Shown here in pieces: positions 33,523-34,176 of a DNA stretch of 64,000 bases. The stretch's first letter is position 1. Each line of letters opens with the position of its first letter. The stretch comes from Candidatus Falkowbacteria bacterium (GTDB taxonomy: Bacteria > Patescibacteriota > Patescibacteriia > Patescibacteriales > UBA12465): positions 517,062 to 581,061 of the forward strand of contig CP066698.1 of the NCBI GenBank assembly GCA_016432645.1, in the 5' to 3' direction. Position numbers and translations under genes: made by a program. Under the pieces are notes generated by a model, which worked only from the letters and a program-made list of their open reading frames with translations, did not search any database and was not told the origin of the DNA.

Positions 33523-33936
33523 TTAATCTTTTCTAAATAAACTAGATTTATATTTTTCCGGATGATACGAATTTAACCTCTTAATTTCACAAAAAAAGCG
33601 TTCTTGAGCTATCAGCTCCTGGAGCGCTTTTAAATCTACTTGTTGATCATAGCCTAAACAAATAATGTCCGGGCGCAATTCCCTCAATAGCTGCCAGCGG
33701 TCAACTTTATTCCCCAAAATAACTCGGCCCTTAAGACATAATTCCTTAACTGCATCCTCCACTTTCTGGCGACGCACTTCTTCATTTTCTTGTGGTAAGT
33801 GTCCCTTCCCTTTTAAAACATTGGCATCGCGCGCCACAACTACTATCAGTTCATCGCCAAAGACACCGGCCTGAGAAAGATAGGAAAGATGGCCGGGATG
33901 AAGATTGTCAAAAGTTCCGAAGGCAATCGCGCGCAT
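33523..33936 (-). CDS. Cytidylyltransferase-like small nucleotidyltransferase (HxGH class; RibL/TagD-like)
   Basis: GTFDNLHPGHLSYL motif. 137 aa. It is the first gene of a tightly packed five-gene operon with paralogs 6-3. Confidence 0.6.
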   Translation of the reverse strand: MRAIAFGTFDNLHPGHLSYLSQAGVFGDELIVVVARDANVLKGKGHLPQENEEVRRQKVEDAVKELCLKGRVILGNKVDRWQLLRELRPDIICLGYDQQVDLKALQELIAQERFFCEIKRLNSYHPEKYKSSLFRKD

Positions 33937-33942
33937 ATTTTA

Positions 33943-33971
33943 TCTTGTATTTATCTCTAGCTTGCTATACT
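33943..33971 (+). promoter_or_regulatory. Module C promoter P1
   Basis: TCTTGT, a 17-nt spacer, then TGcTATACT. Confidence 0.5.
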
Positions 33972-33978
33972 TATTTTT

Positions 33979-34054
33979 GCTGTGGGCCCGGCAGGTTGCT
34001 TGACCATTCTTAACAAATCGGTCTTCGGAGTTCGACTCTCCGCGGGTCCACAGA
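33979..34054 (+). ncRNA. tRNA-like minihelix RNA, module C (RNA1)
   Basis: ctgtgggcccg/cgggtccacag stem, with T-arm-like cggag-ttcgact-ctccg. This T stem covaries with cgggg/ccccg of copies A and B. Confidence 0.55.
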
Positions 34055-34074
34055 TGCTAGCAAAACGATAATTA

Positions 34075-34103
34075 TTGACGTTTAAAAAATTTTTTGCTAT
34101 TAT
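34075..34103 (+). promoter_or_regulatory. Module C promoter P2
   Basis: TTGACG, a 17-nt spacer, then TGcTATTAT. Confidence 0.55.
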
Positions 34104-34108
34104 AAATT

Positions 34109-34176
34109 ATGTTAAGAATGGTCTATATTGTAACCTGTAAGATAAATAAATGCCCCCGCAAGGGGGTTTTTATTTT
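34109..34176 (+). ncRNA. Short terminator-bearing RNA, module C (RNA2)
   Basis: tgttaagaatggtc (34110-34123) is complementary to gaccattcttaaca (34002-34015). acctg (34133-34137) is complementary to caggt (33992-33996). The terminator is ccccc-gcaa-ggggg plus a T-run. Confidence 0.5.

Follow-up and report, generated by a model that had tools for sequence, protein, structure and literature searches.

A two-RNA cassette repeated in Patescibacteria: a tag-less tmRNA-like domain and its predicted antisense partner

Three copies (A, B and C) of an intergenic cassette with two predicted small RNA genes lie within 8 kb of a 64,000-nucleotide stretch of DNA from Candidatus Falkowbacteria bacterium (contig CP066698.1, positions 517,062 to 581,061 of the forward strand; hereafter, the window), and our analysis, centered on copy C, recovered 106 distinct cassettes from genomes and metagenomes of Patescibacteria. 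Judged from sequence and predicted structure, the first RNA of the pair (RNA1) is a homolog of the tRNA-like domain (TLD) of transfer-messenger RNA (tmRNA), combining G3:U70 (the alanine/tmRNA identity pair), A73, a T-arm, a putative 'GG' D-loop analog and a probable stump of tmRNA helix P2. The second RNA (RNA2), the transcription of which is also predicted, is on the same grounds a dedicated trans-acting antisense RNA to RNA1. In the interpretation that we favor, at rather less than even confidence, the two would form a decoy-and-antidote cassette, with RNA1 interfering with ribosome rescue and being neutralized by its own RNA2. The components are of known kinds, namely, a TLD-only tmRNA and an antisense RNA with a terminator. 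We found no description, in Rfam 15 or in the literature retrieved (of incomplete coverage), of their combination into a tandem two-promoter cassette with multiple chromosomal copies and co-evolving orthogonal codes.

Anatomy and distribution of the cassette

Copy C occupies a gap of ~240 bp between two genes. Direct reading of positions 33700-34500 places in it, in this order, promoter P1, RNA1, the hexamer GCTAGC, promoter P2, RNA2 and a terminator. The coordinates and complementarities given for copy C in an earlier, sequence-only reading were all found in the sequence, except for the span of the minihelix. In window coordinates, the features are as follows:

33935-33948, plus strand: conserved A/T block atattttatctt, upstream of P1; most cassettes have a TTTATCTT-type block
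33943-33971, plus strand: P1, with TCTTGT (33943-33948), a 17-nt spacer and an extended −10, TGcTATACT (33963-33971), without a real −35
33980-34053, plus strand: RNA1, 74 nt, tmRNA-like TLD without a tag reading frame
33992-33999, plus strand: RNA1 side of helix H1, caggttgc; partner at 34130-34137
34002-34015, plus strand: RNA1 side of helix H2, gaccattcttaaca; partner on RNA2
34002-34023, plus strand: inner hairpin of RNA1, gacc (34002-34005) with ggtc (34020-34023); the loop contains cTTAACA
34056-34061, plus strand: GCTAGC, self-complementary hexamer just 3′ of RNA1
34075-34103, plus strand: P2, near-consensus, with TTGACG, a 17-nt spacer and TGcTATTAT
34109-34176, plus strand: RNA2, comprising H2′ (34110-34123), a bulge (34124-34129), H1′ (34130-34137), an A/U tail (34138-34151) and the terminator (34152-34176)
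34109-34306, plus strand: mechanical open reading frame (ORF) of 65 aa, not a gene
26580-26835, plus strand: cassette copy A; RNA1 at 26635-26709, 21-nt matched pair 26656-26676 with 26759-26779
27800-28035, plus strand: cassette copy B; RNA1 at 27845-27918, matched pair 27866-27880 with 27968-27982

Both promoters and the hexamer could be read directly as previously described. Transcription from P1 is predicted to start at ~33978-33979, 1-2 nt ahead of the RNA1 stem, in which CTGTGGGCCCG (33980-33990) pairs with CGGGTCCACAG (34043-34053) over 11 nt, including one G·T. The stem had been recognized correctly, but the span assigned to the minihelix, 33979-34054, was 1 nt too wide at each end, as g33979 and a34054 are unpaired. 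It consists of a leader/trailer extension (33980-33983 with 34050-34053) and an acceptor stem (33984-33990 with 34043-34049), the latter with G3 at 33986 and U70 at 34047; A73 is position 34050, and the T-arm occupies 34026-34042. The inner hairpin is probably the stump of tmRNA helix P2, and RNA1 of copy C folds with a minimum free energy of −31.1 kcal/mol (z = −3.7).

P2 is among the five top-scoring promoter-like sites (10-11 of 12) of 26-35 kb, with a predicted start at ~34109-34110. When RNA2 is folded alone, its 5′ 14 nt are unstructured. The terminator (stem 34152-34167, T-run to 34176) is predicted to act on both strands; as had been noticed, it lies next to the metK stop codon, ending 2-3 nt short of the metK ORF end coordinate, 34179, and within the window this type of terminator is found at the three cassettes only. 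At the opposite edge, the start codon of a cytidylyltransferase-like gene (33936-33934, minus strand) abuts the block atattttatctt, where the sequence-only reading had placed it. An inverted copy of this left A/T block, AAGATAAA, was located by a repeat finder at 34139-34146. The ORF at 34109-34306, for which no coding signature had been expected, crosses the terminator hairpin into the antisense of metK, has no Pfam match and has no counterpart at copies A and B. The three copies share a common architecture, their inner segments differing between copies and being matched within each; equivalent self-complementary hexamers are found at 26713-26718 (copy A) and 27923-27928 (copy B).

An exact-pattern scan of one genome per species yielded 17 copies in 16 loci, all in metagenome-assembled genomes (MAGs) of Patescibacteria, including a Candidatus Falkowbacteria. 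A looser pattern matched 92 stretches in metagenomes, of which 80 were taken in as loci, and a covariance model (R1) built from 20 RNA1 sequences recovered all pattern-found copies as well as divergent extra ones, giving the 106 distinct cassettes. The R1 scores of copies B and C are 84.5 and 87.3 bits, respectively. The picture of a repeated module with two promoters, a tRNA-like minihelix, a second transcript matching its loop and a shared terminator, previously drawn for the window, generalizes to this whole set. Every well-preserved cassette consists of an extended −10 promoter, RNA1 7-8 nt further on, a short spacer often with a self-complementary hexamer, a near-consensus promoter, RNA2 and a C-rich terminator. 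The P1 −10 sits 7-8 nt ahead of RNA1 in 65 of 78 cassettes, and the P1 −35 matches at three or fewer of six positions in all 78. By comparison, the P2 −35 matches at 5-6 of six positions in 61 of 67 cassettes. P2 is forward-oriented in all cassettes checked, and its −35/−10 elements are kept although its distance from RNA1 ranges from ~15 to ~150 nt. A Watson-Crick palindromic hexamer is present 4-14 nt after A73 in 38 of 106 cassettes, as opposed to 11 of 104 in a control region, and these figures become 73 of 106 and 16 of 104 when G·U is allowed; the hexamer is GCTAGC 14 times and GTTAAC 10 times.

Several smaller observations concern the same region and the source genomes. In two loci (L003 and L008), the position of the hexamer is taken by the P2 −35 (GTTGAC), and in three others (L037, L064 and L068) a DnaA-box-like TTATCCACA or TATCCACAG stands 10-25 nt after RNA1, which may be a partial duplication of the RNA1 3′ end (TCCACAG). 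Cassettes can be dense, with up to three in 2.4 kb in L016. Some of the cassette-bearing A/T-rich MAGs (L002, L004, L005, L008-L010, L012 and L016) are titled 'uncultured Gammaproteobacteria bacterium' despite their Patescibacteria-type gene content and are probably mislabeled.

The search of the window at Rfam gathering thresholds returned three tRNAs only, and the literature found on RNAs of Patescibacteria and the Candidate Phyla Radiation, the coverage of which is incomplete, contains no description of the cassette. A phage origin was rejected, since neither search pattern matched viral contigs in IMG/VR and copy C had no match among GenBank phages; the match between RNA1 of L093 and phage sequences was restricted to the T-arm and the 3′ acceptor region.

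RNA1, RNA2 and their pairing

RNA1 displays extensive covariation: 14 of 22 pairs change on both sides, a value reached by none of 500 shuffles, slid controls being far lower. The covarying parts are the acceptor stem, the leader/trailer extension, the inner hairpin and the T-arm. In the 7-bp acceptor stem G1-C72, G2-C71 and G3:U70 are invariant, as is A73, with G3:U70 present in 86 of 86 distinct rows, most of which were collected with patterns that impose it. Seven copies found by the model only, and hence free of the search patterns, keep G3:U70 and A73, while 4:69, 5:68 and 7:66 covary. In the T-arm all cells are paired, with GC/AU covariation, so that the compensatory change previously noticed in copy C (cggag/ttcgact/ctccg) is part of a G-C to A-U exchange recurring in the family (GC 70, AU 15). 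Leader and trailer pair in 100% of cases at −1:73 and −2:74, 79% at −3:75, 88% at −4:76 (47% when permuted) and 80% at −5:77.

The Rfam tmRNA model, RF00023, aligns RNA1 over positions 1-374 with the whole middle deleted. The minihelix thus corresponds to the TLD of tmRNA minus the mRNA part, an identity that the sequence-only reading had not recognized. The RF00023 scores (gathering score, 47 bits) are as follows:

RNA1 of L016: 47.7 bits, at the gathering score
RNA1 of L093: 46.3 bits, E = 3.5e−15
RNA1 of L005: 45.3 bits
RNA1 of L036: 36.5 bits
RNA1 of L085: 32.5 bits
RNA1 of L054: 32.2 bits
RNA1 of L033: 28.5 bits
RNA1 of window copy A: 29.7 bits, E = 3.8e−8

The three copies at or near the gathering score lie at 3857-3927 in L016, 900-971 in L093 and 2981-3051 in L005; copies A and C of the window are below it. 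An annotation hazard follows from the fact that some RNA1 copies reach the Rfam threshold, as these could be labeled as the tmRNA of the organism.

At the level of individual segments, RF00023 aligns CCAGGUGGC of window copy A, which is homologous to the H1 segment of copy C, with the tmRNA D-loop analog, consensus cuGGaUUC; copy C, itself not aligned by the model, has the homologous CAGGUUGC. In L093, UUGGAUCC is opposite the same consensus and ACCA is encoded, and in the family as a whole ACCA is encoded in four copies. The inner hairpin of RNA1 is located where helix P2 leaves the tmRNA core. RNA1 shares with standard tmRNA (ssrA, RF00023) the acceptor stem with G3:U70 and A73, the T-arm, a putative 'GG' D-loop analog and a helix leaving the core at the P2 position, but has no pseudoknots, resume codon or tag frame and measures 74 rather than ~350 nt. 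Tag-less, TLD-only tmRNAs are known from mycobacteriophage DS6A, jakobid mitochondria and plastids of Mallomonadaceae (PMC4131195, PMC11915505), and members of the bacterial group '9FT-COMBO-53-11' 'may lack tag reading frames' (PMC11915505). RNA1 resembles these forms in that RF00023 aligns both of its ends with the middle deleted; unlike them, it is chromosomal and multicopy, with its own promoter and a dedicated antisense gene, a partner not described for the known forms (PMC4131195, PMC11915505).

Other identities considered for RNA1 were rejected. It is not a tRNA, as it has no D-arm or 7-nt anticodon loop (the inner loop is 9-14 nt); RF00005 made no call at any of the three copies, and ARAGORN called no tRNA, tmRNA or tag peptide at the cassettes. 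Nor is it a full tmRNA, because only ~35 nt separate the 5′ strand of the acceptor stem from the T-arm, without a tag frame or pseudoknots. With the two-piece permuted tmRNAs of alpha-proteobacteria and cyanobacteria the cassette has in common two base-paired RNAs of one locus, one of them with a T-arm. However, in permuted tmRNA the acceptor stem forms between the pieces and the coding piece contains the tag frame, whereas RNA1 closes its own acceptor stem (RF04321, 13.9 bits, E = 0.72) and RNA2 pairs with the D-loop analog and P2 stump, so that it would disrupt the TLD rather than complete it. Weak matches to mascRNA (RF01684, 24-41 bits, below its gathering score) reflect only the tRNA-like core shared with mascRNA and tRNA-Ala minihelices, that is, a 7-bp acceptor stem stacked on a T-arm, mascRNA being a eukaryotic family. 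Leader/trailer pairing is reported for MALAT1 as well (PMC8457004). In RNA1, this extension may direct processing; alternatively, the end of the mature RNA stays closed and alanylation never takes place.

A tmRNA of the standard form is present in most Patescibacteria, with 5252 such genes counted in 6765 genomes (supplement of PMC11915505), and RNA1 is therefore probably an extra molecule. No SmpB homolog was detected in the 790 kb of loci with the E. coli SmpB sequence as the query. In one locus (L069), two TLD-only, CCA-encoding mini-tmRNAs (GGGGCCA...TGGCTCCACCA; 500-576 and 713-785, minus strand) lie in a same-strand tRNA cluster without RNA2, suggesting that RNA1 is the autonomous, active part of the cassette and RNA2 an add-on. 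The contig has a higher G+C content and contains two further ORFs, one resembling an insertion-sequence-type transposase and the other HNH-like. ARAGORN gives the tRNAs on either side, 'Ile-tat' and 'Pro-tgg', an unusual length of 94-95 nt.

The complementarity between RNA1 and RNA2 is considerably longer than the 14 + 5 nt originally noticed. In copy C, gaccattcttaaca (34002-34015) and tgttaagaatggtc (34110-34123), 94 nt apart, are 100% complementary according to the repeat finder, in agreement with the perfect match reported before, and the caggt/acctg pairing (33992-33996 with 34133-34137) extends to the 8-bp helix H1 (caggttgc, 33992-33999, with gtaacctg, 34130-34137, including one G·U). 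In the RNAduplex prediction, nt 9-34 of RNA1 form an almost unbroken duplex with the 5′-most ~45 nt of RNA2, ~25-28 bp in all: H1 covers the D-loop analog and H2 the 5′ strand and loop of the inner hairpin, with a 4-12 nt A/U bulge on the RNA2 side. The complementarity begins approximately at the predicted P2 start, that is, at the RNA2 5′ end. The copy C duplex has an energy of −33.8 kcal/mol (z = −9.5 relative to shuffled RNA2). For 20 cassettes, the mean energy is −36.5 kcal/mol for cognate and −18.8 kcal/mol for non-cognate pairs, with cognate z-scores from −5.7 to −13.3 against shuffled RNA2; for 104 cassettes, the respective means are −36.3 and −21.1 kcal/mol. The suggestion that each copy has its own private matched pair is thus borne out. 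Within the window the best partner of each RNA2, its own antisense strand aside, is the cognate RNA1, and no other target of RNA1 or RNA2 stands out.

Transition mismatches are G·U, which plus-strand RNA tolerates, in 44 cases and A·C in 15 (p = 2e−4), which indicates selection on plus-strand RNA and argues against both a DNA-level repeat and a minus-strand RNA. Where a locus has two or three cassettes, the cognate RNA2 is in most cases favored by each RNA1, with a margin of 10-25 kcal/mol; the exceptions are L041 and L085, with some non-cognate energies within 3-4 kcal/mol, and L058, which is cross-wired. In the latter (cassettes 6350-6424 and 6571-6645, minus strand; the same pair occurs in L073), each RNA2 matches the RNA1 of the other cassette: the RNA2 that follows the first RNA1 binds the second RNA1 at −33.1 and its own at −21.4 kcal/mol, and the same is true in the other direction. 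The arrangement resembles the outcome of recombination between cassettes, with both pairs still complete in trans, and indicates that pairing works in trans. Extended complementarity, separate predicted promoters and compensatory change are all found in the sequence, as befits a trans-acting antisense pair.

RNA2 has no conserved reading frame, and its A/U tail has stop codons in all frames. In a full-length read-through transcript, the acceptor stem and the helices H1 and H2 are predicted to be mutually exclusive. Binding of RNA2 should open the tRNA-like body, because the two structures could coexist only if ~10 nt of RNA1 bridged a ~26-bp duplex. The loop of RNA1 contains the motif YTTRACA (YUURACA in RNA) in at least 71 of 106 cassettes and resembles U-turn loops, which speed up antisense recognition. 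In IS10 RNA-IN/RNA-OUT and hok/sok, a free 5′ end first contacts a hairpin loop of the U-turn type, from which pairing spreads along one strand of the stem, and in Sib/Ibs of E. coli paralogs in one genome discriminate their partners via variable segments. By analogy, RNA1 and RNA2 would share with these systems 5′-end-to-loop seeding and discrimination between paralogous partners by variable segments. There, however, the antisense RNA is encoded opposite its target and controls an mRNA, whereas here the genes are in tandem on the same strand, complementarity has co-evolved and the target is non-coding and tRNA-like.

Genomic setting

Cassettes are almost always antisense to both neighboring genes, a feature that had escaped the sequence-only reading: among 74 cassettes with both neighbors called, 68 are antisense to both, three are co-directional and three mixed. 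The upstream gene has its stop codon right beside the terminator, and at the other end P1 and the start of the downstream gene point away from each other. A T-box-type leader was rejected, since in 68 of 74 cases no same-strand gene follows the RNA2 terminator, which faces the stop codon of the convergent gene. The cassettes must let the downstream gene be expressed; a search for a minus-strand promoter inside the cassette found no conserved −35/−10 pair. In 66 of 76 cassettes the base after the P2 −10 is an A, and the resulting symmetric TAnnnTA (e.g. window 34098-34104) also reads as an opposite-strand −10; for P1, this is the case in 41 of 78. The TAnnnTA of P2 might possibly serve as a bidirectional promoter for the downstream minus-strand gene.

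The neighbors represent several unrelated syntenic sites, for which reason a constant protein partner was rejected; the counts are gatC 19, gatA 18, phosphoenolpyruvate (PEP)-utilizers 18, GT2 13, PPDK_N 11, ligA 9, YbeY 9, FemAB 6, LeuRS 4 and singletons 33. Even the gap between gatC and gatA, two genes usually united in a single operon, can hold a cassette. In L016 (3853-6211) the order is a 237-aa gene, cassette, gatA, cassette, gatC, cassette, ligA, and consecutive housekeeping gaps are occupied also in L002 and L005. In six loci, L021 among them, the right-hand neighbor of the cassette is a FemAB-family gene (PF02388, E = 1.6e−44) for a tRNA-dependent aminoacyl-transferase of peptidoglycan, with YbeY on the other side; this may be mere synteny, although it is of interest beside a tRNA mimic with alanine identity.

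In the window, cassette A (26575-26840) separates a HAD hydrolase gene from a His_Phos_1-like gene; at L013 679-693 the same two genes are 13 nt apart without the cassette. This presence/absence indicates that cassettes are gained or lost; comparison of the occupied and empty sites revealed no visible target-site duplication. Copy B of the window is of type I, and L013 and L006 have a type II cassette at the same site. The window also encodes five paralogs ending in a PEP-utilizing-enzyme mobile domain, PF00391 (23202-25091, 28028-29491, 29494-30795, 30797-32134 and 32138-33520, all on the minus strand), one of which starts with a helix-turn-helix. With a separate PPDK_N (ATP-grasp) gene just across a cassette in related loci, these give the impression of a PEP-synthase/PPDK-like family that has been expanded and split, as is typical of such genomes. 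A 446-aa protein (35457-36797, minus strand) has a Por_Secre_tail (PF18962, E = 1.7e−8), a C-terminal sorting domain of type IX secretion tied mainly to Bacteroidota, yet the genome of the window is Patescibacteria-like.

Possible function of the cassette

Under the decoy-and-antidote interpretation, the weak P1, which has an extended −10 but lacks a −35, would drive transcription of RNA1, and the near-consensus P2 that of RNA2. RNA2 is predicted to be made in excess of RNA1, because the −35 of P2 is near-consensus while that of P1 matches at no more than three of six positions, and read-through from P1 would add one RNA2 per RNA1. The unstructured 5′ end of RNA2 would seed on the U-turn-type loop of RNA1 (YUURACA) and then zip along the 5′ strand of the hairpin (H2, 14 bp in copy C) and across the D-loop analog (H1, 8 bp in copy C), producing a duplex that would be incompatible with the folded tRNA-like body. 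RNA2 would thereby keep RNA1 off its partners (SmpB and possibly AlaRS, EF-Tu or the ribosome) or mark it for a double-strand RNase. SmpB contacts the TLD at the D-loop analog, the region that RNA2 would cover. Seen as a toxin-antitoxin pair, the cassette would consist of a stable RNA toxin (RNA1) directed against ribosome rescue and a labile, over-produced RNA antitoxin (RNA2), with each genomic copy having presumably evolved its own orthogonal pairing code. Private codes are to be expected if each cassette must escape the antidote of another, and they are seen among paralogs in toxin-antitoxin systems and in Sib/Ibs. This reading appears the most economical because a TLD-only molecule has been reported to inhibit tmRNA strongly, perhaps via titration of SmpB (PMC4131195). 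With more reserve, we suggest that the cassettes might be RNA-only addiction or defense modules, in which a mini-tmRNA head would sequester SmpB or occupy stalled ribosomes, a short-lived antisense RNA would act as the antidote and the copies would diversify their 25-bp code to escape cross-neutralization.

Among known classes, a type I toxin-antitoxin system was rejected for want of a conserved ORF, the 65-aa frame at 34109-34306 matching no family and being missing from copies A and B. In type VIII systems (CreT/CreA, SdsR/RyeA) both toxin and antitoxin are RNAs; CreT sequesters a rare tRNA, and CreA acts via Cascade on the creT promoter. By analogy, both partners of the cassette would be RNAs, a stable structured one interfering with translation and its neutralizer. 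Neutralization would, in contrast, proceed by direct RNA-RNA pairing, the proposed target would be SmpB and trans-translation, and toxicity is putative. A type VIII-like reading is supported indirectly by the reported inhibition of tmRNA by a TLD-only molecule (PMC4131195), by the stronger predicted promoter of the putative antidote and by the orthogonality of the paralogs.

Several points weigh against the decoy-and-antidote interpretation. P1, P2, the RNA ends and the RNA stabilities are predictions, and the invariance of G3:U70 was imposed in most copies by the search patterns. Copies B and C are not listed by RF00023 at E ≤ 0.01, their link to tmRNA being made via the family model R1. The RNA1 stem runs 4-5 bp past the acceptor, covaries there and stops exactly at the predicted P1 start; if kept in the mature RNA, the leader/trailer stem would bury A73 and prevent alanylation. 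Toxin-antitoxin logic explains neither the antisense orientation (68 of 74) nor the self-complementary hexamer after RNA1. Finally, toxicity, SmpB binding and RNase sensitivity are putative, and a beneficial regulatory role would fit the same anatomy.

Such a role could be that of a regulated mini-tmRNA: alanine-charged RNA1 would, together with SmpB, free stalled ribosomes without tagging, the peptidyl-RNA1 dropping off and being hydrolyzed, or would tune trans-translation, and RNA2 would be a feedback or conditional brake. We regard this as rather unlikely, though it accounts equally well for the anatomy and the similarity to tmRNA, as well as for the strict retention of G3:U70 and A73 next to covarying pairs and for ACCA in four copies. 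Tag-less tmRNAs have been retained in mitochondria and plastids; that they are conserved there and co-occur with SmpB suggests that they still help cells with incomplete mRNAs (PMC11915505). It leaves without reason, however, the several copies per genome with private antisense codes; the covarying leader/trailer stem would block the 3′ end, and the genomes most likely already have a full tmRNA. A two-piece tmRNA, in which RNA2 would dock on RNA1 and supply an mRNA part reduced to a stop codon (such as CCUG-UAA, 34138-34140), so that only alanine is added before release, seems highly improbable. That RNA1 is a TLD, that two-residue tags are known (PMC11915505) and that several subtypes have a stop codon right after H1′ (type I UAA, L005b UGA) would agree with it. 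Against this, there is no conserved frame, and the A/U-rich tail gives stops in every frame; H1 occupies the D-loop analog, which a working TLD needs free, as TLD-SmpB structures indicate; the 26-bp duplex cannot coexist with a closed acceptor and T-arm when only ~10 nt of RNA1 are available to span it, just as the read-through folds into the duplex or the acceptor stem only; and the topology is unlike that of permuted two-piece tmRNA.

The roles of the two RNAs could also be reversed, with RNA2 as an effector small RNA acting on mRNAs through a 5′ seed and RNA1 as a stable tRNA-like sponge. RNA2 is indeed laid out as a classic trans-acting small RNA, with a free 5′ seed and a Rho-independent terminator, and tRNA-derived sponges are known, e.g. 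the 3′ external transcribed spacer (3′ETS) of leuZ. Nevertheless, we consider this improbable, since the best non-self partner of each RNA2 in the window is its own RNA1 with no mRNA site standing out, seeds differ at the same genomic position (type I in window copy B, type II in L013 and L006), which is hard to fit with conserved mRNA targets, and the conserved, tmRNA-like part is RNA1. As a non-ribosomal alanine carrier, RNA1 would be an anticodon-less Ala-tRNA mimic serving FemAB-type cell-wall transferases, with RNA2 controlling its availability. The retained G3:U70/A73 identity set, the FemAB-family neighbor in six loci and the acceptance of minihelices by FemX-type enzymes speak for it. 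Yet the FemAB site is one among many (ligA/gatC/gatA, PEP-utilizer arrays, metK and others), the similarity is tmRNA-specific, including the D-loop analog, and the private antisense codes are left unexplained, so we give this explanation very little weight.

Equally little weight falls to elements acting at the DNA level or by folding in cis, such as an invertible P2, a miniature transposable element with terminal inverted repeats or a self-folding P1 transcript. P2 is indeed flanked by inverted repeats, TTTATCTT and AAGATAAA stand in inverted orientation at either end (10 of 10 positions in copy B, 8 of 8 in copy C), cassette A is absent from the orthologous L013 junction and a full-length transcript reading through from P1 is predicted to form H1 and H2 in cis. 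But the 44:15 ratio of G·U to A·C points to RNA, the cross-wiring of L058 requires pairing in trans, and the P2 −35/−10 are kept at widely varying distances from RNA1. A reverse-oriented promoter as the only one between the arms was seen in none of 104 cassettes and the bias toward G·U favors RNA, so that an inverton was rejected. A miniature inverted-repeat transposable element was likewise rejected, because the end blocks are shared A/T motifs without cognate covariation (match of 6.18 for cognate and 6.13 for non-cognate ends, p = 0.43, 73 cassettes) and no target-site duplication was seen. Among the rivals, the DNA-level readings are the best excluded.

If the cassettes are RNA-only addiction or defense modules, no earlier toxin-antitoxin system would have been directed at trans-translation or derived from a piece of tmRNA. 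If RNA1 acts as a decoy, it would represent a naturally occurring, programmable inhibitor of trans-translation, which is already under pursuit as a target for antibiotics; the cassette might be the first RNA-only toxin-antitoxin system acting on ribosome rescue, and the family would offer more than 100 naturally orthogonal RNA-RNA pairs in a cassette that is compact, abundant and easy to synthesize. The cassette links tmRNA-mediated ribosome rescue with antisense RNA control, two fields previously unconnected, in Patescibacteria, a huge and barely cultured branch with tiny genomes and almost no RNA regulators known. Even if its role is regulatory, the family shows that tag-less tmRNA fragments exist as actively maintained and duplicated chromosomal genes, and not just as relics of organelles and phages.

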